DNA of 64,000 bases, from positions 84,373 to 148,372 of the forward strand of contig JBMYYH010000001.1 in NCBI GenBank assembly GCA_049609225.1, read 5' to 3'. Every line of letters begins with the position of its first letter. The stretch's first letter is position 1. This DNA is from Planctomycetota bacterium. Its GTDB lineage: Bacteria; Planctomycetota; UBA1135. The notes beneath the pieces are model-generated. The model searched no databases. It was not told the origin of the DNA and saw only the letters and a list, made by a program, of their open reading frames with translations. Made by a program: the position numbers and the translations under genes. Below, one piece after another: positions 1 to 14,435 of this stretch.

Positions 1-557
1 TCTTCCGAAGGAGTCATGCCGGCCTTACCCGGAGCCCAACCGGCAGGGCAGACCTGGCCACTTTCCTCAAGGAACGCCATGGCATCCAGCAGACGCAGGA
101 TCTCATCCATGTTGCGTCCGAGTGGCAAGTTGTTGACCATCTCGACCATGACCATGCCATCCTTCCCGATCAGGAAGGTGCCACGCATCGCGAAGGTGGT
201 CTCCTCATGGAGGACATCGTAGGCATTGGTCATGGAACGATCCTCGTCGCAGAGGAGCGGGTACTTGACCGGGCCGATGCCACCTTGGTCGATGGCGGTG
301 TTACGCCAGTTGGCGTGGGATTCTGCGTCGTCAATGGAGACACCCAAGACCTGGGCGCCGCGCTTTTGGAACTCACCGATGCGGTGATCAAAAGCGATCA
401 ATTCAGACGGTCACACGAAGGTGAAATCCTTAGGGTAAAAGAAGAGGACGACGGGCTGGCCCTTGTAATCAGACAAGGAAACCTGCTTGGTCGAGCCGTC
501 TTCCATGACCGCGGTAGCCGTGAAATCGGGCGCGGTTTTGTTGACGAGGACTGCCAT
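1..557 (-). CDS. Typical 2-Cys peroxiredoxin (AhpC/Tsa family). The C-terminus is cut by the window edge. An in-frame TGA (411-413) sits at the peroxidatic-Cys codon, making this a candidate selenocysteine peroxiredoxin.
   Basis: ATG at 557-555. The frame reads [12 protein letters not shown]...[13 protein letters not shown][TGA][28 protein letters not shown]...[19 protein letters not shown] and stays open to position 3. FTFV-C-P-(T/S)-E and VCPAGW are the canonical peroxidatic and resolving Cys motifs. Confidence 0.8.
361..396 (-). promoter_or_regulatory. SECIS-like bipartite hairpin 14 nt 3' of the peroxiredoxin TGA
   Basis: The minus-strand RNA folds as CGCUUUUG-AU-CACCG-CAU-CGGUG-AGUUC-CAAAAGCG. 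This gives an 8-bp perfect lower stem (396-389 / 368-361) and a 5-bp upper stem (386-382 / 378-374). Confidence 0.45.
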
Positions 558-586
558 GTTTATTTCTGGGATTGGGGACGGGCGAA

Positions 587-601
587 GCCCGGGGAAGGCC
601 A
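587..601 (-). promoter_or_regulatory. Weak candidate sigma-54 promoter for the peroxiredoxin gene
   Basis: The minus strand reads TGGCCT-TCCCC-GGGCTT, with GG (600-599) and GC (588-587) at the canonical GG-N10-GC spacing, about 30 nt upstream of ATG 557. Only the core dinucleotides and TGGC match the consensus TGGCAC-N5-TTGCW. Confidence 0.3.
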
Positions 602-619
602 TTCTAGGAGGGGTCCCAG

Positions 620-641
620 AAATCTCAATTTCGGGACGATT
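620..641. promoter_or_regulatory. 22-nt operator-like motif, near-identical to one in the norR-norC intergenic region
   Basis: AAATCTCAATTTCGGGACGATT here versus AAATCTCGAATTTCGGGAGATT at 4862-4883. The site lies inside the dyad GAAATC-N13-GATTTC (619-643). Confidence 0.5.
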
Positions 642-713
642 TCGTAGTAAATGCGACTCTCGGAAGGAATCCTCATAGGATGACAAACGATCGGCACGAC
701 ACCCCCCCACTCT

Positions 714-1862
714 ATGAGACTCCAGAAGCATCCTGACCTCCTAGCTCATTCCGAGCACCGCCATGCCACTTGGTTGGAGCTGTTCTTTGACCTCGTTTTC
801 GTTGCTGCTATCAGCGTGGTGACCCACAACCTCCTGGCTGTCCACGACGGGCATCTCGAACATGGACATGCCTGGCTATTTCCCCAGGAACTCATCCCCA
901 TCTGGTGGGTGTGGGCTTCCCAAACCCTCTTCGCCAATCGTTTCGACACCGACGGCCACCATCACCGCCTGGCCAATCTCATAATTATGCTGTTGGTGGC
1001 GACCATAGCCACCCTTCTTGGGGGCGCCTGGGCTCAAGAGACGGGAATGTTCCTGGCCTTCTACATCTCGGTGCGGATGATTTTGGCTTGGCTTTATCGA
1101 CAAGCCTCAGAGCATCAGGCCGTGTGTAAACCATTCGCACGTAAGATGAGTTTGGCAGTTGTCCTGGGCACCGCGATTTCCGCTACAGCGTTATTTCCTT
1201 CCTCACCGTGGCGTGAAATTTTATTCCTCTCAGGAATCGCATTTGAGATGATTTGTGTTGCACTTTGGAGTAAGGATAAAGATGCGCCAGAGGTCGACCG
1301 AGAACACCTCATCGAGCGCACCGGTTTGTTGTCCATTATTTTGCTCGGCGAGTCGGTCCTTAACTTGGTTTCGGCCCTGCGCAATTACAATTGGACGCCG
1401 TGGAGCCTGTCCGCTGGCCTTTCCGGGTTCATTATGCTGGGCAGCATTTGGTGGATTTATTTCGACAGCTTCAACCGACTCGGACAGGCCAAGCGACTGC
1501 GCAATGGCCTGGTGGTGCTGTATTCGCACGCGTTGTTCATCATGGGACTCGGCATTCTTGCCAGCCTGATCGCTCACGCTGTGCGCAGCGACATCGTCAT
1601 GACCGACTATCGCGTACTCGCAATCGGTGGCATGACTTTGCTATATCTGGGGAAGCAGATTCAGTACTACGTAGCCTTCCCGCCCTATCGCCGGAATATC
1701 CTCATCAACACGTCAGTCTGCATCGGCATCACTGCGGGCTCTGCGTTTTTACCTCGCCCTGAAATGGCCCTGATGGGCGCAACATGTGGACTCCTGTTCT
1801 GCGTTTTCAGCAGTGTCCGCTGGACCCTGAGCAAAGACGTTTCGGCGTACTTGAAGGGTTAG
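714..1862 (+). CDS. LtrA (low temperature requirement A) family integral membrane protein
   Basis: 382 aa and polytopic. The N-terminal [16 protein letters not shown] matches the LtrA-family signature as I recall it. Confidence 0.75.
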
Positions 1863-1872
1863 ACTCGTAAGC

Positions 1873-3189
1873 ATGCCGTTGCTCCTGGCACTTGCCCTGA
1901 CCCTAGCCCCGCAAGACCCTTCCGCGGAATCCGTGAATGTGGCTTCGGAGGCTTCCGATCCCTTTGGCGCCGTTGCGATGCCGGAGTTGGACCGCAGTGA
2001 ATACCGTGCTTGGCGTAGGTACTTGCGTCCGACGGATGAGGAAGCAGCCTTTGAAGCGATTCCGTGGCTCCCCACCTTTGCGGATGGCTTGAAGGCCGCC
2101 GAAGAAGCGCAGTTGCCGCTCCTGCTGTGGGTGATGAACGGGCATCCGCTCGGCTGTACGTGAAACAATGGTGTCGCGGGCCGTGTGTCCGTGTTCTCTG
2201 ATCCACGGATTGCAGAGTTGTCGAAGGCATTCCTGCCTGCGGCGGATGAGGTTTGGCGTTTGCAGCGCGGCGGCGATGCCGAATGTCAGTTCTTCCAGCG
2301 CGCGGTCAACGGTGGCAAGTTGATCACCGACAATGGCACGCGCCAAGGCATCTACGTGATGGCGCCTTCGGGTGAGGTGCTGGCGCGCGTGAACAGCCTG
2401 AAGGCCGATCGCGTCTTGCAGATGATGCAGGAAGGACTGGCCGCATGGGAAGCACTACCGGAGGAACGCCGCCATCTGGCGTCGGATACACGACTGGAGG
2501 GTGAGGAGCGCTGGGAAGATTCCCGCCCGACGGAAGGTTTGTTGTTGTCGCGCATCGTGCGTGACCTACCCGTCGAAGGCACGGTGGACGGCACCCGCGC
2601 CACGCGTTGGAATCGCGATACATTGTGGTTCTCCAAGGAGGAGGTGGAACAGTTGGTCAAGGATGCACGGGACCGACCGGCCGATTGGGTGCCCCTCCCC
2701 CGCGCCTTCGCCCGACGGCTGGCCTGCTTCACCTTCGTCGACAATGTCTACGGCCAGTGCATTCCCTTCGACATGGAGGATGTCACGCAGATGCAATTGG
2801 AAGTGCGTTGGGAGTCCGAAGACGACGACAACCTGCACCTTCGGTTCCGCGGACGTACGGCGGCTGCGGAAGATGGCGAGTGGCGTCTGGGCGAGAACTT
2901 GTGGAAGCCGAAGAACATGCATGCGCATGCCTTGGAAACCACCATGCTCGGCAGTGGCACTTTCGACCTACACAGCCGCAGCTTCGTTGCCTTCGAGATG
3001 CTCGCACTCGGACGTCGCAGCGGCTTCACAGAGTTGAACAGCCGACGTTTCCGCCCCGAGCCAGGCGGCATCGGCTTTTTGATTCAACTGGATCGTCGCG
3101 CCTGGTCCGCCGCACCGACCTTCATCGCGCTTTATGAAGCGGATTGGGTCAAGCCGCCGACCAAAGGGCGGGAACTGACCAAAGACTAA
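1873..3189 (+). CDS. Secreted protein with a thioredoxin-fold-like N-terminal region. It is read as one gene through the in-frame TGA 2161-2163 (candidate Sec, context GCT-U-NNG).
   Basis: ORFs 1873-2163 and 2185-3189 are in the same frame, separated only by TGA plus 7 sense codons. The junction reads LPLLLWVMNGHPLGCT[TGA]NNGVAGRVSVFSDP. The N-terminus MPLLLALALTLAP is signal-like. The gene starts 10 nt after ltrA. Confidence 0.5.
2175..2193 (+). promoter_or_regulatory. SECIS-like hairpin starting 11 nt 3' of TGA 2161-2163
   Basis: CGCGGGC-CGUGU-GUCCGUG: a 7-bp stem (two G-U pairs) with a 5-nt loop containing GU. Confidence 0.4.
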
Positions 3190-3195
3190 GGCGCA

Positions 3196-4830
3196 TCAGG
3201 CCTTGCCCTTAGCGGCTTCGCGGATGCCAAGCCGCACGCTGAGGTGATGCAGATTGCTGCGATGCATGCCGAGTTCGCGTGCTGCCGCGGCCCATACTCC
3301 GTCGTGGCGAAGCAGTGCCTCACGAATGAGCATGCGCTGATAGTCCTCGACGGCTTCGCGCAATGGCCGTGGCTCATTTTTGGCCTCCTCAGAGGTTGGA
3401 GTCTCCATCTTGACCGGTGGGACCTCCACCGACGCACTCTCCTTCTCCGACACATTCGCTGGCACGAAGTCGCCACCTAGGTCGGCGCGTTGCACCAGGA
3501 TGAGGTTGCCGCGCAATACGCGGCCACTCGCTCGGAGGACCGCTCTGGAAAGGGTGTTCTCCAGTTCACGCACGTTTCCAGGCCAAGCGAACTCACGTAG
3601 GGCTTCGAGGGCGTCGGGGTGGAGGCGAATTGGGCCTAGACCTAACTGACGTCGGGTCTGATCGCAGAAATGACCGGACAGGACCGCGATGTCTTCGCGT
3701 CGGGCGCGGAGAGGCGGGACCACCAAACGGCAGACGTCGAGGCGGTGCAGCAGGTCCGAGCGGAAATGGCCGGCCTCAACCTCCTTTTCCAAGACGCGAT
3801 TGGTGGCTGCAAAAACTCGTACTGAAACACGATGCGTCTTGTCCGAACCCACGCGCTGGATCTCTCCTGATTGCAGCGCACGAAGCAGCTTGGGTTGCAC
3901 CGACATCGGCAACTCTCCAATCTCATCAAGGAAAAGGCATCCACCATCGGCAACTTGGAATTTGCCCAAGCGCTTGTGCGTCGCACCGGTGAAGCTGCCG
4001 GATTCATGGCCGAAGAGTTCGCTCTCCACCACGGATTCCGGCAAGGCTGCACAGTTCACATAGATCAGTGGCTTGGCCGAACGGGTCGACTCCTGATGCA
4101 GGCGCTGGACCACGAGTTCCTTACCGGCGCCGGTCTCGCCGGTGATGAGTACTGGAAAATCAGAGCCCGCGAACAGGGCAATCTCTTCCAGCAGGTTCGA
4201 CATCGCCTCACTCTGCCCCACCATACGCACGGTTGGCTTGGGCCCCTCAGCCAACAGGGCGTCGGCAATGAGGTCTTGCTTCTGGGCCGCGCGCTCGAGG
4301 GCGTCGTCCAGATCGGCGGTGCGCAGTGCCGCGGTGGCGAAGGCTGCGAGCAGATCGAGCAGGATGATGGGCACCTTGTCGAAGGTCCCCGGTGCGATGG
4401 CATCCAACGCAAGGACTCCGATCAAGCGATCTCCGATCCGAAGGGGCACTCCCATGCAGGCATGGACGTGACTTGTGAAACCTTTGTGCCCATCAAGCAG
4501 ACCATCAAAGGGGTCGGCCAACGGCGAGTCTGCAGGGAATCGCACCGCCTCTTCGGCTTTGCAGATGACGGAAAACCGCGGGTTATCCGAGATGTGGAAA
4601 GCGTGACCATGGGCCTCGTCAGCCAGTCCCAGGGAAGCCACTGGGATGAGGGCTTCGTCTTGGGTCCGTAGCAGGGTGACGGCATCCGCCTTCAACAAGC
4701 GCTGCACGCCGACCACGAAGCGTTGGTAACGCTGCTCGGGGTCCAGGGTCAAAACGAGGTCTTGGGCAAGATCCCGCAGCCCTGGAAGCAGCGAAAGCGT
4801 TGTCGTTTGCACATCAGTTGTCGTTTTCAC
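3196..4830 (-). CDS. norR: Sigma-54-dependent NO-responsive transcriptional activator (NorR type: GAF domain, AAA+ domain, Fis-type HTH)
   Basis: GTG start. Walker A is VLITGETGAGKE, with ESELFGHESGSFTGA and a C-terminal HTH AAARELGMHRSNLHHL. It is divergent from the nor operon. Confidence 0.85.
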   Translation of the reverse strand: MKTTTDVQTTTLSLLPGLRDLAQDLVLTLDPEQRYQRFVVGVQRLLKADAVTLLRTQDEALIPVASLGLADEAHGHAFHISDNPRFSVICKAEEAVRFPADSPLADPFDGLLDGHKGFTSHVHACMGVPLRIGDRLIGVLALDAIAPGTFDKVPIILLDLLAAFATAALRTADLDDALERAAQKQDLIADALLAEGPKPTVRMVGQSEAMSNLLEEIALFAGSDFPVLITGETGAGKELVVQRLHQESTRSAKPLIYVNCAALPESVVESELFGHESGSFTGATHKRLGKFQVADGGCLFLDEIGELPMSVQPKLLRALQSGEIQRVGSDKTHRVSVRVFAATNRVLEKEVEAGHFRSDLLHRLDVCRLVVPPLRARREDIAVLSGHFCDQTRRQLGLGPIRLHPDALEALREFAWPGNVRELENTLSRAVLRASGRVLRGNLILVQRADLGGDFVPANVSEKESASVEVPPVKMETPTSEEAKNEPRPLREAVEDYQRMLIREALLRHDGVWAAAARELGMHRSNLHHLSVRLGIREAAKGKA

Positions 4831-4861
4831 AGCGGGTATTGTAGTCGAAAAAACAACCTCA

Positions 4862-4917
4862 AAATCTCGAATTTCGGGAGATTACTCTATTTTCGGAGTT
4901 AGAGATATTAATATCTC
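4862..4917. promoter_or_regulatory. Cluster of three dyad symmetries, a candidate enhancer (UAS) for NorR
   Basis: AATCTC-N9-GAGATT (4863-4883), CTCTA-N10-TAGAG (4885-4904), and the perfect 16-nt palindrome GAGATATTAATATCTC (4902-4917), which abuts the -24 element. Confidence 0.4.
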
Positions 4918-4932
4918 GGCACGCTTTTTGCT
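4917..4932 (+). promoter_or_regulatory. Sigma-54 (-24/-12) promoter of the nor-nir operon
   Basis: CGGCACG-CTTT-TTGCT versus consensus TGGCACG-N4-TTGCW. It lies 56 nt upstream of the norC ATG and next to a sigma-54 activator gene. Confidence 0.65.
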
Positions 4933-4987
4933 CCCTCCCCGGTGAGCCAAGAGCTCAACCTCCCAACCCAAGACCTGAGAACACCTC

Positions 4988-5719
4988 ATGCTCACCAAAT
5001 CAGCCGCCAAAGCGTTCTTCCTGGGCGGCACAGCCTTGTGCAGCATCGCCTTCGTGCTCCTCTCCATGGACACGCTGGCACAGATGCCGGATCGCTCGAA
5101 CCAGGACCAGATGTCGGATTCCGTCGTACGCGGACACCATATCTGGAACAAGAACAACTGTATGGGCTGCCACACCATCATGGGTGAAGGCGCCTACTAC
5201 GCACCGGAATTGACCCTTGTCATGGAACGACGCTCCAAAGCTTGGATCGCCGAATTCCTGAAGGACCCGGAGCGCATGTACCCAGGTCGCCGCAAGATGA
5301 CCAAGTACGACTTCTTCGATCCTGCCATCGTCGGTGAGGAAGAAGCTGCCAAGAACGTCGACGACATCGTCGCCTTCTTTACATGGGTCGGCAAGATCGA
5401 CCTCAACGGCTTCCCGGCTGAGCCGGATATGGCTACTTCGCCTCGGCTCGTGACTCCTGATGTCACCGAGTCGGACGCCCTGTCCGCTGCCCCTACATAC
5501 TTTTCCACGGTTTGCACGAGCTGTCACGCCGTCAATGGCGCCGGCGGCAACGTCGGTCCGGACCTGGCTGGTGTTGCCGACCGCTATGAGCCAGATTACC
5601 TACGCAAGTGGGTTTCCGACCCGAACTCGGTGAAGCCTGGCACCGCCATGCCAAACCTTGGCCTTCAAGGCGAAGAGCTCGAGCAAATCCTTTCCTACCT
5701 AGGAACCCTCAAGGAGTAG
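4988..5719 (+). CDS. norC: Nitric oxide reductase subunit C with an extra C-terminal class I cytochrome c domain (diheme)
   Basis: N-terminal TM helix, NorC-like CMGCHTIMGEGAYYAPELT, and a second heme site CTSCHAVNGAGGNVGPDL...PGTAMP. Confidence 0.85.
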   Translation: MLTKSAAKAFFLGGTALCSIAFVLLSMDTLAQMPDRSNQDQMSDSVVRGHHIWNKNNCMGCHTIMGEGAYYAPELTLVMERRSKAWIAEFLKDPERMYPGRRKMTKYDFFDPAIVGEEEAAKNVDDIVAFFTWVGKIDLNGFPAEPDMATSPRLVTPDVTESDALSAAPTYFSTVCTSCHAVNGAGGNVGPDLAGVADRYEPDYLRKWVSDPNSVKPGTAMPNLGLQGEELEQILSYLGTLKE

Positions 5720-5723
5720 GACC

Positions 5724-7073
5724 ATGTACGCAAAATCAACCAAGCTCGCGTGGACCTTCTTCGCCACGTGCATGGGCCTGTTCGCCCTGCAACTCCTCTA
5801 TGGATTCATCCTCGGCTTCGACCGCATGGGCTTCGATGTGCTCCATGATTGGATCCCCTTCAACACAGCACGCGCGACGCACACCAACCTGCTCGTCGTG
5901 TGGCTCTTGGCCGGCTTCATGGGTTCGGCCTACTACATCATCCCGCAGGAATCCGGTCGTGAGATCTGGAGCCCAAAGCTCGCCTGGATCCAATGGCTTT
6001 CCTTGGTCTTGGTCGGTGTCGTCGCCCTTATCGGCTACCACCTGAACTACTGGGAAGGACGCAAGTTCCTCGAGATCCCGCGCCCACTCGACTACCTTGT
6101 GGTTGTCAACGTGTTGGCTTTCTTGTTCAACCTCCTGATGACCATCTGGACGGGAAAAAACAAGAGCACGACAGCTATGGTGCTGTTCTTTGGCTTGCTC
6201 ATGGCCGCGTTGCTGTACCTGCCAGGCATGTACACCTTCGACAACATTGTGCATGATTCCTACTTCCGCTGGTGGGTGGTCCACCTCTGGGTAGAAGGCG
6301 TTTGGGAACTGATCATGGGTGCGATCCTTTCGTTCCTGTTGATCAAACTGACGGGTGTGGACCGCGAAGTGATCGAGAAGTGGCTGTACATCATCGTCGG
6401 CTTCACCTTCCTCTCCGGCATTCTCGGTACCGGGCACCACTACTACTTCACTGGCGCTCCCGGCTACTGGCTCATGGTTGGTGGAATTTTCTCGGCCCTC
6501 GAGCCGCTGGCCTTCCTCGGCATGGCCATGTACGCCATCGTCATGGCGCGCAGGGGCGGACGTAATCATCCAAACAAACTCGCTCTGACGTGGACCATTG
6601 GTTGCGCCATCATGAGTTTCGTCGGTGCTGGATTCCTTGGCTTTGCGCATACCCTTCCGGCGGTCAACATGTGGACGCACGGAACGCTGGTAACGGCAAT
6701 GCACGGTCACATGGCTTTCTGGGGCGCTTACGCGATGCTCATCCTGGCAATGATCACCTACGCCTTGCCGGAAATGACTGGGCGCAACCTCTTTAAGGGT
6801 TGGATCCCGGAATGGGCATTCTGGCTCAGCAACATTGGCATGATTTCGATGACGGGCGCCTTCGCCGTCATGGGTGTCGCCCAGGTGTACATGGAGCGTA
6901 AGTCCGGCATGGACTTCCTCGATGTGCAGGAGAGCTTGGAAATCCACGCTTTCGGCTTAGTCCTTGCTGCGGCGTTGTTCTCCATCGGCATTGGATTGTT
7001 CATCAAGAACTTCATCAGCTACGGCCTCCCGAACGACGAGGTCTTGGCAGCCCAAGAGGGCATAGAGGGTTAG
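5724..7073 (+). CDS. norB: Nitric oxide reductase subunit B (cNOR, heme-copper oxidase superfamily)
   Basis: 449 aa with 12 TM helices. Contains WWVVHLWVEGVWEL (the FeB His/Glu motif) and GTGHHYYFTG. Confidence 0.9.
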   Translation: MYAKSTKLAWTFFATCMGLFALQLLYGFILGFDRMGFDVLHDWIPFNTARATHTNLLVVWLLAGFMGSAYYIIPQESGREIWSPKLAWIQWLSLVLVGVVALIGYHLNYWEGRKFLEIPRPLDYLVVVNVLAFLFNLLMTIWTGKNKSTTAMVLFFGLLMAALLYLPGMYTFDNIVHDSYFRWWVVHLWVEGVWELIMGAILSFLLIKLTGVDREVIEKWLYIIVGFTFLSGILGTGHHYYFTGAPGYWLMVGGIFSALEPLAFLGMAMYAIVMARRGGRNHPNKLALTWTIGCAIMSFVGAGFLGFAHTLPAVNMWTHGTLVTAMHGHMAFWGAYAMLILAMITYALPEMTGRNLFKGWIPEWAFWLSNIGMISMTGAFAVMGVAQVYMERKSGMDFLDVQESLEIHAFGLVLAAALFSIGIGLFIKNFISYGLPNDEVLAAQEGIEG

Positions 7074-7076
7074 GAA

Positions 7077-7892
7077 ATGTCTGGGACCAACGTCATGTCT
7101 GAAAGTCAACAAGAGAAGGGGTTGGTCCCTTTCTACCAACCCATCGCGCAGGAGACCGATCTGTTCCTGCACTGCTGGCAGCAGAAACTGCCACTCATGC
7201 TCAAGGGGCCGACTGGCTGTGGTAAATCTCGATTCGTCGAACACATGGCAGAGCAGCTAGGCCGGCCTCTTGTTTCCGTCGCCTGTCACGACGACACCAG
7301 CGCTTCCGATCTACTCGGTCGTTGGTTGGTGCGCGGCGGCGACACCGTATGGCAAGATGGCCCTGCAACGCGCGCCGTGCGTGAGGGAGCCATCCTCTAC
7401 CTCGACGAAGTGGCGGAAGCCCGGCCCGATGTGGTCGTGGCCATCCACCCCCTTACTGACCACCGCCGTCGTCTGTTCTTGGAGCGCCACGATGAAGTGC
7501 TCGAAGCCATCGACGACTTCATGTTGGTGGTCTCCTTCAACCCCGGTTATCAGAAGGGTTGGAAGGAACTGAAGCCTTCGACGCGGCAACGTTTCGTCGC
7601 GCATAGCTTCGACTATCCCACGCCCGAACTCGAGACCCGCATTCTCTGCGGCGAGACCGGATGTGAAGTCGACCTCGCCAAACGCCTGGTGAAACTCGCC
7701 GGCAAGTTGCGCGGCCTGGAAGAGCTCGGCTTGGCAGAGAAAGCATCCACGCGCTTGTTGGTAGACGCAGTCCGCCTCATCCAAGCAGGCATGGCACCTC
7801 GTGTCGCTTGCATCGCTGCGATCTGCGAACCGCTGTCGGACGAAGCCGACATCCTCGAAGCCCTACGCGAAGTCGTCACGCTCGCCTTCTAG
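7077..7892 (+). CDS. norQ: NorQ/CbbQ-type MoxR AAA+ ATPase
   Basis: Walker A LMLKGPTGCGKS and Walker B AILYLDEV. About 270 aa, located between norB and norD. Confidence 0.85.
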   Translation: MSGTNVMSESQQEKGLVPFYQPIAQETDLFLHCWQQKLPLMLKGPTGCGKSRFVEHMAEQLGRPLVSVACHDDTSASDLLGRWLVRGGDTVWQDGPATRAVREGAILYLDEVAEARPDVVVAIHPLTDHRRRLFLERHDEVLEAIDDFMLVVSFNPGYQKGWKELKPSTRQRFVAHSFDYPTPELETRILCGETGCEVDLAKRLVKLAGKLRGLEELGLAEKASTRLLVDAVRLIQAGMAPRVACIAAICEPLSDEADILEALREVVTLAF

Positions 7893-7896
7893 TCTC

Positions 7897-9807
7897 ATGG
7901 TCCGACGCCAAGCACCACCGGAACTCCACCTCGACTTTGCCGAGGAGTTCTTTGGTGCCTTGTGGAAGCGATTCCGCAAGCGTCCGGTATGTCGCTATGA
8001 AGAGCAGGGTGCTCATTTCGAATCGATGGCGGCCTCCTTGGGCGCCGTCGCACAAGCCTTTGCCGGACGCCACGTGGTCGTGCGTCGGGCGGAAGGATCC
8101 GGAGGAGTGCACTCACATGTGGTGTTGTTGCCACGCCTCATCGCCTTGTCCTCAGAGGTCGCAGTGAACCGGCGCTTCCTGTTCACGCGTGCGGCTTTGG
8201 CAGGCGCCATGATCGCGTCGCAACTGGAGCAGACCGCAGAAAGTGCTGCACCCTCCATTCATCCGGAGCTCGCGTTCCTGCAACACGCGGTCGACACCGC
8301 ATGTAGTTTGAGCAAGGAGCATCCCGGATTCGCGGAACGTCTGCAGGAAGGCGCACGCTTGGAGCTGCAACAACGCCCAGGCGTGGATACCTACCGCGGC
8401 CATGGCGAGATCCTTGAACTGGCCCGACGCTCCGCCTTGATTGCCGTGCTGCAGGGGCAGTCTTGGGAGCCGGATCCATCTTGGTCCGTCGCCCTCACGC
8501 GCAAGGCCAAGAAGAGCCTGCCCTCTCCGGCGGTCCTGCTGTTCGGCAGTTCCCTGCCGCGTTCTGAAATGGATGTCGCTGAGCAGGCGATGTCGGAGGA
8601 AGAGAAGGCTGCGGGTATCGCAGCGGATGCCTCGGAAGTCGAGGCGCCGGTGAAGGATCATGTCAAACGCATCCTTCTGGAGGACGACGATCCCTACAAG
8701 GAGGCGATGCCGGATCATGCCTTCGAGAAGATCTCCTTCGCGGAGAAATACGAGGGTGGAAGACGTCGGATGGATGGCGAGGATGACATGGATGAGCAAC
8801 AGCAGTCGCTCGATTCCGTGGACCTGCGCGAACTGATCCGTGGTGGACCGGAAGTCCACAGTATCTACAAGGCGGACATCGGGGATACCGAAGGTATTCC
8901 AGACGTCGCATCGGTGGATCCGAAGGAGAAGGGAATCACCTACGACGAGTGGGATGAAAAGGCGCGCTGCTATCGCAGGGATTGGGTCACGGTCTATCCG
9001 ACCACCTTGCCGCCGTCGGAGGATGCTGCTTCGGAAGAGCAACGCCAACGCCTGGCCTCCACCGTGCGCACCTGCATGCGCCGTCTCGAACGCAAACGCA
9101 CCGAGCGACGTTCGCTCGACCGCCAACTCGATGGCAATGAGTTCGACCTCGCCGCCGTGGTCGAGGATCACGCGGCCTTGCGTTCCGGACAAACCCCAAG
9201 TGGTCGCATCTATCGCCACAACCCGCGCATCGATCGCGACCTCGCCACGACCGTTCTGTTGGACCTGAGTCTCTCCGCGGATTCCTGGGTCGGCGGACGT
9301 CGGGTACTCGACGTCGAACGCGATGCAGCCTTCGTTCTCGGGGAAGTCGCCGAAAAGATCGGCGATTCCCTGCAGATCATGGCCTATGCCTCGAACACCC
9401 GCAATCTCTGTCGCATGTGGGACGTCAAGTCCTGGCACGAACCATGGCGCCTCGGCGCCGCGCGCCTGCAACAGCTGAAACCTCAAGGCTACACGCGCAT
9501 TGGCCCGGCGATTCGCCATGCCACCGCGAGCCTCGAGGCCCATGATGCACGTCATAAGCACCTCATCCTCATCACTGACGCCAAACCTACAGATTTCGAT
9601 CGCTATGAAGGCAACTACGGAGTCCATGACGTCCGCCAAGCCGTGCGTGAAGCGGCTTCGCAGGACATTGGCGTTCACGCCCTCGGCATTGACCCGAAAT
9701 GCGCTGGCATCCTGCCGGTGATGTTCGGGGTTCGAGGCTGGAAGCTCCTACCCCATCTTGCGGAACTTCCTGAAGCACTCGTCAATGCCTATGGCGACCT
9801 CTGTTGA
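7897..9807 (+). CDS. norD: NorD, a von Willebrand factor A domain protein
   Basis: I chose the ATG 4 nt after the norQ stop; the track's earlier start at 7801 overlaps norQ. The C-terminal VWA domain has the MIDAS motif LLDLSLSADS and ends in ILITDAKP. Confidence 0.8.
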   Translation: MVRRQAPPELHLDFAEEFFGALWKRFRKRPVCRYEEQGAHFESMAASLGAVAQAFAGRHVVVRRAEGSGGVHSHVVLLPRLIALSSEVAVNRRFLFTRAALAGAMIASQLEQTAESAAPSIHPELAFLQHAVDTACSLSKEHPGFAERLQEGARLELQQRPGVDTYRGHGEILELARRSALIAVLQGQSWEPDPSWSVALTRKAKKSLPSPAVLLFGSSLPRSEMDVAEQAMSEEEKAAGIAADASEVEAPVKDHVKRILLEDDDPYKEAMPDHAFEKISFAEKYEGGRRRMDGEDDMDEQQQSLDSVDLRELIRGGPEVHSIYKADIGDTEGIPDVASVDPKEKGITYDEWDEKARCYRRDWVTVYPTTLPPSEDAASEEQRQRLASTVRTCMRRLERKRTERRSLDRQLDGNEFDLAAVVEDHAALRSGQTPSGRIYRHNPRIDRDLATTVLLDLSLSADSWVGGRRVLDVERDAAFVLGEVAEKIGDSLQIMAYASNTRNLCRMWDVKSWHEPWRLGAARLQQLKPQGYTRIGPAIRHATASLEAHDARHKHLILITDAKPTDFDRYEGNYGVHDVRQAVREAASQDIGVHALGIDPKCAGILPVMFGVRGWKLLPHLAELPEALVNAYGDLC

Positions 9808-11289: not shown

Positions 11290-12147
11290 ATGAAACGACA
11301 CCTCCCTCTACTCCTTCTCGGCGCAGCCATCTTCGGTTGCTCCACCACGAGTCAGGACACGCCCTCCCCTGTGGAAGACGTGAAGAAGGAGGTGTCGACT
11401 TCCATCCTCACGCGGTTGGTCCCGATCCCTGCCGGGACCTACCGCCCCCTCTACTCGGCCCCCGGCGAACCTACGGAGTTCGCGCGCCCGGCCTTCCAAC
11501 TGGAAGAACACCCGGTGACCAATGCGCAATATCTGGCATTCGTCGAAGCGAATCCACGCTGGCGCAAGTCGCAAGTGGCGAGCCTCATGGCCGAAGCCAA
11601 CTACCTCCATCACTGGACGGATGATCTGACCTTCCCCGTGGAAGCCGCAGACTCTCCAGTGACCAATGTCTCGTGGTTTGCAGCACGCGCATATGCCCAT
11701 TGGGCAGGGCGACGCTTGCCCACGCTTGCCGAATGGGAAAGTGTCGGCATGGCCAGTAAGACCGCGGCCTTCGGTCGTGATGAGAAGGGCTACAACCAAC
11801 GCATTCTCAACTGGTACTCCCGGCCGACCCCACCCTACCCCGAATCGGTTCTTTCGCATGAACCGAACTACTTCGGAATCTCCGACATGCACGGTCTCAT
11901 CTGGGAATGGGTCGGCGACTTCAACTCCTCGCTTAGCACGGGGGAATCCCGTGGTGACTCGGGCCTTGACCGCAACTTGTTCTGCGGTTCCGGTTCCATC
12001 GGCGCTGCCGACCCCTCCGACTACGCCGCCTTCATGCGCTTCGCATTCCGCGGCAGTCTCGACGGACACTTCACCGTCAACAACCTCGGCTTCCGCTGCG
12101 CAGCTGATTCCGTCTCCACCGAGACGGCGACCCCAACCAAGCCATGA
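11290..12147 (+). CDS. nirV: NirV-like lipoprotein (formylglycine-generating-enzyme / SUMF1 fold)
   Basis: Lipobox AIFGCS and HPVTNAQYLAFV...NVSWFAARAYAHWAGRRLPT...GFRCA. It sits directly after nirK. Confidence 0.7.
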   Translation: MKRHLPLLLLGAAIFGCSTTSQDTPSPVEDVKKEVSTSILTRLVPIPAGTYRPLYSAPGEPTEFARPAFQLEEHPVTNAQYLAFVEANPRWRKSQVASLMAEANYLHHWTDDLTFPVEAADSPVTNVSWFAARAYAHWAGRRLPTLAEWESVGMASKTAAFGRDEKGYNQRILNWYSRPTPPYPESVLSHEPNYFGISDMHGLIWEWVGDFNSSLSTGESRGDSGLDRNLFCGSGSIGAADPSDYAAFMRFAFRGSLDGHFTVNNLGFRCAADSVSTETATPTKP

Positions 12148-12770
12148 AACTCCACCAACTCCTGACTCTGGCCCTTTTGCCCCTGTTCGCCTGCGCCGGT
12201 GCCGCCTCCGACGAGGTCGCGCCCTGCTGCGCCGACGAACCCGCACCAGCTGGCATGGCAACCGCCGATCTGCCCGGCACCTCGCTTTATCTGCTCGATG
12301 GAGACTGGACCGATCAGACCGGTCACGCGCGCACCCTGTCTAGCTTCCACGGCGAAATCGTGGTTGCCGCAATGGTCTTCACCCACTGCCAATACGCCTG
12401 TCCCATGATGTTGCAGGACTTGAAGGACATCGAATCCAAGATTCCGGAATCGGACCTGCCGAAGGTACGTTGGTTGTTGCTGTCGATGGACAGTGAGCGT
12501 GACCAGCCTGAGGTCCTTGCCGACTACGCCAAGCGCAACCACTTGGACACCGAGCGTTGGACCCTGCTACATGGCGAGGACTATCCGGTTCGTGGAATCG
12601 CCGCAGCTCTAGGCATCAACTACGTGAAGGATGTGAACGGGAACTTCTCGCACTCTAATAAGATCACGGTGCTGAAGGCAGATGGTTCGATCGCCTACCA
12701 GCTCGAAGGTTTGAATGCCGCGAACGAGCCATGCGTCGAAGCGATCATGAATGAGATCGCAAAAGACTGA
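12144..12770 (+). CDS. SCO1/SenC family copper chaperone (thioredoxin fold)
   Basis: Lipobox LFAC, the CxxxC motif FTHCQYACP, and a downstream conserved His (FSHSNKI). It overlaps the nirV stop (ATGA). Confidence 0.8.
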   Translation: MKLHQLLTLALLPLFACAGAASDEVAPCCADEPAPAGMATADLPGTSLYLLDGDWTDQTGHARTLSSFHGEIVVAAMVFTHCQYACPMMLQDLKDIESKIPESDLPKVRWLLLSMDSERDQPEVLADYAKRNHLDTERWTLLHGEDYPVRGIAAALGINYVKDVNGNFSHSNKITVLKADGSIAYQLEGLNAANEPCVEAIMNEIAKD

Positions 12771-12801
12771 ACGGCAGACGAACGAGGCCTCCCTTCCGAC
12801 C

Positions 12802-13368
12802 ATGACCAAGCCACGTTATCGAACCCTACCAGGTGATGCGGCTTGGTGGATGTTTCTCACCGCCGAGTTCCTGACTCTCGGCATCTTCTTTGTCGCCTTT
12901 GCATTCTCCCGCCAGGGCAACCTGGAAGTCTTCGAGCAAGGCAAGGCCATGCTCAACCCGGATGTTGGATTCCTCAACACCTTGGTCCTGATCACCAGTG
13001 GCTTCTTCGCAGCACGCGGGGTGGCGTCGATCGAGAAGAAGGAGAGCGCCAAGACCAGGCTATGGCTGATGCTTGCCGCGGTCCTGGGTGTGATCTTCCT
13101 CGCCATCAAGACTTGGGAATACGTCGGCAAGTTTGAAGCGGGGATCAACCTCAGCACCAGCAGCTACTTCTTCTTCTACTTTTTCCTGACGGGATTCCAC
13201 TACCTGCATGTGGTGCTGGGCGTTGGATTCCTCGGCGTCATGGCATGGCGCTGCGGACGTCAGGGTGCCACCGAAGCCAACACGCGCAATGTCGCATCGA
13301 GCGCCGCCTTTTGGCATATGCTTGACCTGGTCTGGGTGGTCCTGTTTCCCCTGCTCTATCTGGCATGA
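12802..13368 (+). CDS. norE: NorE (heme-copper oxidase subunit III-like membrane protein)
   Basis: Five TM helices and a subunit-III-like C-terminus AAFWHMLDLVWVVLFPLLYL. The start is uncertain; the track ORF begins at 12751. Confidence 0.7.
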   Translation: MTKPRYRTLPGDAAWWMFLTAEFLTLGIFFVAFAFSRQGNLEVFEQGKAMLNPDVGFLNTLVLITSGFFAARGVASIEKKESAKTRLWLMLAAVLGVIFLAIKTWEYVGKFEAGINLSTSSYFFFYFFLTGFHYLHVVLGVGFLGVMAWRCGRQGATEANTRNVASSAAFWHMLDLVWVVLFPLLYLA

Positions 13369-13607
13369 AGCAGCATCGCATCACCCTGGTCTGGCTAGCC
13401 TTGATGGCCTTCAGTACGGCCAGCTACTTTCTCGCAGACGGCGCGACGTCGTCCGCAACTCCCCTGTTCGCGATGGCCGCGATCAAGCTGTTCCTCATCC
13501 AAGCGATCTTCATGGAGTTGCTTGGATGCCGGCCGATCTTCCTACGCCTTGCAGCGCTCCTCGACTTGATCCTACTGGGCCTGTTGAGTCTGGCTTTCGA
13601 TGCCTGA
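13365..13607 (+). CDS. NorF-like small membrane protein (prokaryotic cytochrome oxidase subunit IV-like)
   Basis: 80 aa with 2-3 TM helices. Contains AAIKLFLIQAIFMEL, similar to the COX4_pro motif. Its ATGA overlaps the norE stop. Confidence 0.55.
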   Translation: MKQHRITLVWLALMAFSTASYFLADGATSSATPLFAMAAIKLFLIQAIFMELLGCRPIFLRLAALLDLILLGLLSLAFDA

Positions 13608-14435
13608 GCGACGGCTGCAGAGGATCGCAGTCTTCAAAACATCGGCTGCATTGGCGCTATGCTCCGAAGCGGTTTCCAACACTTCCTCGTGACTCGGACG
13701 ACTGCCGCCGATGCCGGCCGCGAGATTCGTCATCATCGAAATCGCCATGACTTCGGCACCTAAGGCTTTGGCTGCGATGGCTTCCGGAACCGTCGACATG
13801 CCGACCGCATCGGCACCGAGACTCTGCAGCATGCGAACCTCCGCGGGCGTTTCGTAGCAAGGGCCGCAAAGGCCTGCGTAAACCCCTGCCTTCAACTCCG
13901 GACGCAAGGCCATGAGGTCAGAGCGCCAGCGCGGGCTGTAGAGGTCCACCAGATCCAGGAACTGAGGCCCATGCCCACAGTTTTGGCCGCGTTGCAGCGG
14001 ATTCGGCAGGCTCATGTTGATGTGATCCGAGAAAGGCATCAAGGAACCGGGAGCACGATCCTCATGCAGGCTTCCGGCCGCGTTGAGAAGCAGGACTTTT
14101 TTTGCCCCCCATTGCACCAGGGTGCGCACGCCACGCACCAATTCAGCCGGCTCATAACCCTCGTAAGCGTGGATGCGGCCACTACATAGGCCGACGCGGA
14201 TATCGGTACCGCAAAGTCGACCCAGAATTAACTCGGATCCATGACCATCAACTTTTGGCGAAGGCCAATTATCCAGCCCACGGAGATCGACGTGGTCCGT
14301 ATCCTCAAGCAGTCCTGCTGCACGGTCCTTCCATCCAGACCCTAGGATGACCGCCACTTCCGGCGGTTGGCCATGCTGACGGTTCAAAATCTCGACCAGT
14401 GCGTCGACCTTCGTGCACTCCTCAAACATAGGCAC
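13572..14435 (-). CDS. Purine nucleoside phosphorylase (trimeric PNP/PunA type)
   Basis: VAVILGSGW, GRIHAYEGY, LLNAAGSL and GADAVGMSTVPEAIAA. Confidence 0.85.
   Translation of the reverse strand: MPMFEECTKVDALVEILNRQHGQPPEVAVILGSGWKDRAAGLLEDTDHVDLRGLDNWPSPKVDGHGSELILGRLCGTDIRVGLCSGRIHAYEGYEPAELVRGVRTLVQWGAKKVLLLNAAGSLHEDRAPGSLMPFSDHINMSLPNPLQRGQNCGHGPQFLDLVDLYSPRWRSDLMALRPELKAGVYAGLCGPCYETPAEVRMLQSLGADAVGMSTVPEAIAAKALGAEVMAISMMTNLAAGIGGSRPSHEEVLETASEHSANAADVLKTAILCSRRSGIESQTQQAQ

Follow-up and report, generated by a model that had tools for sequence, protein, structure and literature searches.

The 64,000-nucleotide stretch analyzed here (the window) comes from a Planctomycetota bacterium of the UBA1135 lineage (assembly GCA_049609225.1, contig JBMYYH010000001.1, positions 84,373 to 148,372). 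Its first 557 nucleotides carry, on the minus strand, a peroxiredoxin (Prx) gene in which TGA occupies the codon of the peroxidatic cysteine, followed by a stem-loop that resembles a selenocysteine insertion sequence (SECIS). Comparative analysis of this locus makes it very probable, at about 0.88, that the TGA is a genuine selenocysteine (Sec) codon with its SECIS in a typical 2-Cys peroxiredoxin. The features concerned are listed below; MFE stands for minimum free energy and bSECIS for the bacterial form of the SECIS.

Positions 1 to 557, minus strand: gene for a typical 2-Cys peroxiredoxin of the Prx1/AhpC subfamily, cut off at the window edge; based on translation, Pfam and an identical contig
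Positions 411 to 413, minus strand: UGA codon 49 at the peroxidatic residue, probably read as Sec; aligns with the Cys of homologues
Positions 48 to 50, minus strand: resolving Cys170 (TGC) in the VCP motif GQVCPAGW; based on sequence and translation, with the column invariant in the homologue alignment
Positions 361 to 396, minus strand: SECIS-like hairpin; based on MFE fold, conservation, covariation and bSECIS criteria
Positions 339 to 359, minus strand: second small hairpin, GCGCCCAGG-UCU-UGGGUGUC, directly 3' of the SECIS-like element; 98% of cells paired in 17 Sec sequences

The frame that begins at ATG 557 (N-terminus MAVLVNK) has TGA 413-411 as its sole in-frame stop and is otherwise open to position 1. 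The Logan contig L086 (SRR27204695), which is 100% identical to window positions 1-4236 and adds 9.3 kb outside the window, shows that the gene extends 43 nt past position 1, comprises 199 codons plus a stop, and ends in ...EGVASYLAENADSL-stop. With Cys substituted at the TGA, the product matches the Pfam families AhpC-TSA (PF00578, 7.8e-40) and 1-cysPrx_C (PF10417) and scores 238.9 bits with PRK15000, "peroxiredoxin C". The nearest solved structures are those of Helicobacter pylori AhpC (1zof, 3.5e-60) and human Prx2 (1qmv, 8.8e-58). The TGA lies within the PxxxTxxU motif P42-K-D-F-T46-F-V-U49 (positions 411-434), and the active-site residues T46 and R125 (RGTF), together with Cys170, occupy columns that are invariant or nearly so in the homologue alignment. 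The protein also carries a GG(L/I)G-like loop (GGIG, residues 92-95). Judged by its sequence, the gene is a typical 2-Cys peroxiredoxin of the Prx1/AhpC group. An earlier note on this DNA had placed a TGA at the peroxidatic Cys codon of such a gene, with the frame open to the window edge, and had predicted a hairpin 14 nt downstream; coordinates, frame and the GQVCPAGW motif all proved correct, Pfam agrees with the family, and the hairpin is the predicted MFE structure. Antisense to the Prx gene, an open reading frame (ORF) of 146 amino acids (positions 207-647, plus strand) is without a family match and is probably a spurious product of high G+C content.

The TGA aligns with the Cys of the FTFVCPSE motif, and this column holds Cys in 106 of the 120 best protein homologues and in 146 of 165 loci. 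We found TGA at the same codon in 19 other loci, which together with the window make up 17 distinct sequences of 64-91% amino acid identity. In these sequences codon 49 is always TGA and never TAA or TAG, and the ORFs are otherwise intact at 199-200 codons. They derive from metagenome-assembled genomes (MAGs) in GTDB assigned to Planctomycetales, Planctomycetaceae, Planctomycetota and Verrucomicrobiales, as well as from TARA and other marine metagenomes. When GTDB species-representative genomes were scanned, TGA was present in six of the seven nearest loci (MAGs of Planctomycetales, Planctomycetaceae and Planctomycetota, plus two Verrucomicrobiales MAGs), and a metagenome scan added eight further TGA loci. 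The GTDB MAGs with TGA are CAZPAY01, JACETS01, NYVP01, JAKVCE01, DUDB01 and CAYXZD01.

Public gene calls mishandle the gene in several loci (L001-L005 and L086), giving either Trp at the active site or two pieces of 48 and 140-147 amino acids. Among the 120 best protein matches, 13 clusters (P0001, P0008-10, P0012-20; 68-79% identity) show "W" at the column, which is TGA in the DNA, translated under a code-4 gene model on short contigs. The 140-amino-acid fragment P0075 (91% identity) is preceded in frame by DNA encoding the same N-terminus ending in TGA, and the gene caller used on L086 splits the gene into products of 48 and 147 amino acids. Once the Sec codon is recognized, such mis-called database entries yield an antioxidant enzyme of full length.

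Such split annotations are also what a pseudogene or a nonsense mutation would produce, in which case only the 48-residue fragment would be made or the locus would be decaying. However, the TGA is kept in all 17 distinct orthologues, with no other stop and no frameshift. Pairwise dN/dS among the TGA orthologues is 0.09 for the part before the TGA and 0.14 for the part after it, and the approximately 150 downstream codons must therefore be translated and under selection. We consider a pseudogene extremely improbable and exclude it on the basis of the conserved TGA, the intact ORFs and the purifying selection downstream. The chance that the TGA is a sequencing or assembly error for TGC or TGT is negligible: in an independent assembly (Logan, SRR27204695), 4236 nt match the window without a difference, the TGA among them, and TGA recurs in many independent metagenome assemblies from different projects. 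This explanation was likewise excluded.

Downstream of the TGA, the predicted MFE hairpin is CGCUUUUG-A-UCACCG-CAU-CGGUGA-GUUC-CAAAAGCG and begins 14 nt past the UGA. In the lower stem, positions 396-389 pair with 368-361; in the upper stem, 386-382 pair with 378-374, with an additional U387-A373 pair. The apical loop is either CAU (381-379) in the MFE fold or GCAUC (382-378) if the closing G-C pair is open, and lies 28-29 nt from the UGA. All 17 Sec orthologues fold the stem-loop, starting 13-15 nt past the UGA. In a covariation analysis of these sequences (RNAalifold and explicit pair counts), 94.6% of the cells were paired, compared to at most 52% when the 3' partners were slid, and five hairpin pairs showed double changes. 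At column pair 24-46, 11 sequences have CG and five have UA, and here the synonymous third base of a Phe codon (TTY) changes together with the first base of an E/N/K/Q codon. Column pair 30-38 is CG in eight, UA in five and UG in four sequences. The Cys forms L169 and L172 can form the second small hairpin (339-359) as well.

We compared the hairpin with published bSECIS criteria, namely a loop of 3-9 nt, an upper stem of 4-16 bp and a G in the first two loop positions (PMC13188914, Fig. 2), as well as 16-37 nt from the UGA to the apical loop and an MFE of -7.5 kcal/mol or lower (PMC13188914, Fig. 2). In our own implementation, 15 of 17 Sec sequences passed, compared to 10 of 138 distant and two of six close Cys sequences. 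The window hairpin passes with a spacing of 28 nt, the loop GCAUC, a 5-bp upper stem and a constrained energy of -14.1 kcal/mol. Loop and stem sizes are within range either way, with CAU (3 nt) on 6 bp in the MFE fold or GCAUC (5 nt) on 5 bp. The earlier note had called the hairpin SECIS-like, which this check supports, with the G in the loop depending on an open terminal G382-C378 pair; eight of the 17 orthologues are unable to form that pair, and their loop begins with G. The stem-loop lies inside the ORF directly 3' of the UGA, as do the bSECIS elements of Escherichia coli fdhF and fdnG, but it has no sequence similarity to them. With the bSECIS consensus it shares a spacing within range (28 nt), a small apical loop and an energy far under -7.5 kcal/mol; its agreement with the G[G/U] that opens the consensus loop is loose, with GC in the window and GU in several orthologues. 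An Rfam scan of the whole window at gathering thresholds and a permissive scan of positions 1-3300 returned nothing relevant, with no general bSECIS model to match.

In order to separate the hairpin from the peptide that it encodes, the 42-nt hairpin region of each sequence was recoded synonymously with codons drawn from its own gene. The window region has an MFE of -15.7 kcal/mol compared to -10.3 kcal/mol in the recodings (z -2.1), and 2.7% of the recodings fold as well. The three groups of sequences gave the following values.

Sec group, 15 distinct sequences: mean MFE -15.6 kcal/mol, mean z -2.67, all negative
Distant Cys group, 134 distinct sequences: mean MFE -5.5 kcal/mol, mean z -0.36
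Closest Cys group, six distinct sequences: mean MFE -10.9 kcal/mol, mean z -0.52

The z-scores of the Sec group differed from those of the distant Cys group (one-sided Mann-Whitney, p = 3e-9) and of the closest Cys group (p = 0.002). Among the groups compared, the hairpin is stabilized at synonymous sites only in TGA-bearing genes.

Several observations weigh against a Sec codon with its SECIS at this place. The compared sequences are related, so that the Mann-Whitney p-values are optimistic and overstate independence. An 81-nt stretch of the window was unremarkable against dinucleotide shuffles (z -1.19), and synonymous recoding of 66 nt did not separate Sec from Cys forms significantly (p = 0.06 and 0.29); we regard this 66-nt folding test as uninformative because the peptide IAF...EKR itself favors pairing. 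Some of the lower-stem pairing is thereby already favored by the amino acid sequence alone. The loop of the strict MFE fold, CAU, contains no G, and the G of the bSECIS consensus is found only if the G-C pair is counted as loop. The close Cys form L172 retains the full hairpin. Finally, a search of the window and the 9.3-kb extension, which together cover approximately 73 kb of the genome, and of the regions flanking the orthologues gave no selA, selB, selD or tRNA-Sec gene.

The points on folding would also fit a real Sec codon for which the hairpin 361-396 is a by-product of a conserved peptide, the functional SECIS being located elsewhere or having a different form. The IAF and EKR codons account for some of the lower-stem pairing, much of the hairpin persists in the Cys forms L172 and L169, the 66-nt z-scores fail to separate the two kinds of gene, and the MFE loop has no consensus G. 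Nevertheless, we rate this as very unlikely. The stabilization at synonymous sites is specific to TGA forms, the compensatory changes join a synonymous site to a non-synonymous one, and the bSECIS criteria separate Sec from Cys sequences as given above. Moreover, the hairpin-bearing Cys clade falls within the Sec clades. In L172 and L173 (protein P0004, a TGC form), the complete hairpin spans codons +5 to +18 with -18.3 kcal/mol and z -3.2, and a neighbor-joining tree places the L172 (P0004) clade within the Sec clades, while the hairpin is lost in other close Cys forms. This pattern is consistent with a recent reversion from Sec to Cys in which the SECIS persisted as a fossil. As part of a wider and more tentative view of the locus, the Prx lineage may have switched repeatedly between Sec and Cys, with such a fossil kept in one Cys form. 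Sec and Cys orthologues, among them the Cys form with a SECIS, here make up a clean natural series that could serve to study Sec/Cys exchange and SECIS decay.

TGA is otherwise a normal stop in this genome segment, terminating 22 of the 55 long ORFs in the window. The earlier note had cited three TGA stops to this effect, and these do end Pfam-supported genes: FGE-sulfatase (11290-12147), SCO1 (12144-12770) and COX3 (12751-13368). Genome-wide reassignment of TGA (codes 4 or 25) is ruled out by these stops. A scan of the window for ORFs bridged by TGA returned credible cases only for the Prx gene and for a gene at 1873-3189. With regard to the Sec machinery, Pfam annotation of approximately 56 window ORFs gave no SelA, SelB or SelD domain. 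Families typical of the phylum (PSCyt1/2, PSD1, DUF1570) assign the window to Planctomycetota, in agreement with the NCBI name of the identical protein P0121. ARAGORN detected no tRNA-Sec in the window, which is without any tRNA, or in 22 related loci. In tblastn searches of 2.08 Mb including related loci, E. coli SelA and SelD had no match, and SelB had only weak GTPase-domain matches in unrelated Cys loci. Complete selA/selB/selD sets occur in some Planctomycetes (PMC4807772). The absence of the machinery from approximately 73 kb neither supports nor refutes Sec decoding. The presence of two independent genes with Sec/Cys pairs within 1.3 kb is strong indirect evidence for the Sec trait.

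The missing machinery would also be in line with a decoding of UGA-49 as another amino acid (Cys, Trp or Gly), whether through read-through of the near-cognate or suppressor kind or through a lineage-specific recoding independent of SelB, in which the hairpin would merely slow the ribosome or hinder release factor 2 (RF2). The "W" of the 13 public clusters points in the same direction, although it is a code-4 artefact. We judge this very unlikely. Within the window TGA serves as an ordinary terminator, catalysis would be lost with Trp or Gly at the peroxidatic position, and a UGA read as Cys would be without advantage over TGC, yet TGA is kept across two phyla. In addition, the hairpin is placed and shaped like a bSECIS, and a second gene of the window carries TGA in place of a redox Cys, which is the signature of Sec. 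The earlier note had posed the choice as one between Sec recoding and a nonsense mutation, had proposed an alignment of orthologues among its checks, and had named decayed relatives with no conserved hairpin as evidence against recoding. The alignment gives Cys in most homologues and TGA in 17 distinct sequences, all with intact ORFs and the hairpin; together with purifying selection and the TGA-specific hairpin, the comparative data settle this choice in favor of recoding.

If the Sec codon is decoded by the established bacterial pathway, SelB-GTP-Sec-tRNA(Sec) would bind the apical hairpin while UGA-49 is in the A site. Sec would be inserted at UGA-49 in place of termination by RF2, and translation would run to the normal stop at codon 200. 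From the chemistry of peroxiredoxins and selenoenzymes, Sec49 in the PxxxTxxU motif, together with the conserved Arg125, would be expected to attack the peroxide and form a selenenic acid. Condensation of the latter with Cys170, the resolving residue of the partner subunit, would give a selenenylsulfide, which may be recycled by a thioredoxin-type reductant. We speculate that Sec might guard the enzyme, with its GGIG 92-95 loop, from irreversible hyperoxidation. A pair of U49 and U49C variants could test whether Sec protects a 2-Cys Prx that is prone to hyperoxidation.

Sec-containing peroxiredoxins and bSECIS elements in coding regions are textbook features of bacterial selenoproteomes. The TxxU Sec-Prx proteins are an established selenoprotein family (PMC1088965, PMC2398784, PMC13188914), of which twelve genes were known in sequenced genomes by 2006 (PMC1794560). 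The earlier note had described them as known but rare; known holds but rare does not, as marine metagenomes contain 43 genes in the Sargasso Sea (PMC1088965) and 253 in the Global Ocean Sampling data (PMC2398784). The window gene shares with this family (PMC1088965, PMC2398784) the AhpC-TSA fold, Sec in PxxxTxxU, widespread Cys homologues and a coding bSECIS after the UGA, and its relatives are likewise marine (TARA, ALOHA). In contrast to those members, which are unassigned reads, the genes described here are placed in Planctomycetota and Verrucomicrobiales MAGs. The window member belongs with the typical 2-Cys enzymes of the Prx1/AhpC type and still has its resolving Cys.

PrxU of Eubacterium acidaminophilum is an experimentally established Sec peroxiredoxin with UGA at the catalytic Cys codon, according to the work of Sohling 2001 as cited in PMC13188914. 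The window gene has its UGA at the corresponding codon, but it is not an orthologue of PrxU, reaching 150.1 bits with the model NF040737 (NCBIfam peroxi_PrxU) compared to the cut-off of 270. The hosts differ as well, PrxU belonging to a strict anaerobe and the window to an aerobic or marine planctomycete. With H. pylori AhpC (1zof) and human Prx2 (1qmv), the protein has in common the PxxxTxxC/U site, the conserved Arg, a GG(L/I)G-like loop and the resolving Cys in VCP. It differs in its peroxidatic residue, predicted to be Sec, and its intermediate would be a selenenylsulfide instead of a disulfide. The new part is modest and consists of the placement of a Prx1/AhpC-type Sec-Prx in Planctomycetota and Verrucomicrobiales together with the useful Sec/Cys series. 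Current understanding is unchanged by it.

The second gene with an in-frame TGA lies 1.3 kb from the Prx gene and has the following features.

Positions 1873 to 3189, plus strand: second candidate selenoprotein gene of 438 codons with an in-frame TGA at 2161-2163; based on translation and homologues
Positions 2176 to 2192, plus strand: candidate SECIS mini-hairpin GCGGGC-CGUGU-GUCCGU, approximately -7 kcal/mol

Around the TGA, the gene reads ...LLLWVMNGHPLGCT-TGA(2161-2163)-NNGVAGRVSVFSDPRIAEL..., and its product comprises a signal-peptide-like N-terminus, a thioredoxin-fold domain (active site GHPLGC-T-U) and a beta-rich C-terminal domain. The TGA column is Cys in two distant full-length homologues, P0165 and P0169 (GHPLGCSCINGV and GHPLGCTCNNGI). 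Closer homologues were mostly called only from 4-47 residues past the TGA (38 of 40). The DNA of L087, L004, L178 and L180 carries TGA at the same place, the three complete ones among them being 47-64% identical. In relatives, the mini-hairpin takes the form GCGGGC-CGNGN-GUCCGU, 12 nt downstream of the TGA. No Pfam or NCBIfam match was obtained, curated selenoprotein families included, and none of the CxU families in the table of a 2026 review corresponds to the gene when compared by model accession only. The AlphaFold2 model of the Cys homologue P0169 (pLDDT 81.7) consists of an N-terminal thioredoxin-like domain followed by a beta-rich domain. Its top Foldseek matches are 3f9u_B (DsbD-like C-terminal domain, 3.8e-5), 7tkv (Thioredox_DsbH) and AGR2/3.

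It is thus possible, as a tentative proposal, that the window holds a pair of selenoprotein genes and that the gene at 1873-3189 represents an undescribed selenoprotein family, with TGA in at least five lineages. In L087 and L004 its relative is the divergent neighbor of the Sec-Prx gene, while in the window an LtrA gene lies between the two. If the pairing is true, the divergent arrangement in these two relatives hints at co-regulation or at a shared selenium-dependent function in peroxide and thiol redox chemistry in marine Planctomycetota. A direct redox partnership of the two products is doubtful, in view of the signal-peptide-like N-terminus of the one and its lack in Prx.

Further along, a gene for a NorR-like GAF/sigma-54 activator (3196-4830, minus strand) adjoins genes for a di-heme cytochrome c (4988-5719) and a COX1/NorB-like subunit (5724-7073). 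Genes 3196-7073 resemble a nitric oxide reductase cluster of the cNOR type, and SCO1, COX3 and COX4_pro genes follow at 12144-13607. With this cNOR-like cluster and the SCO1, COX3 and COX4_pro genes nearby, the candidate Sec-Prx therefore sits beside genes of nitric oxide and oxidative-stress respiration. In the Cys-form relatives (L169-L173), the Prx gene lies directly between a PNP_UDP_1 gene and Cob_adeno_trans and patatin genes. In the window, the PNP_UDP_1 gene (13572-14435, minus strand) is located 13 kb upstream of Prx, and two DUF1570-type genes stand between Prx and Cob_adeno_trans (L086, positions 1-9288). This contrast in gene order suggests insertions around Prx, including the candidate second selenoprotein gene and the NorR/cNOR genes. 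Antisense to the FGE-sulfatase gene, an ORF of 317 amino acids (11308-12261, minus strand) is without a family match and, given the high G+C content, is probably spurious.

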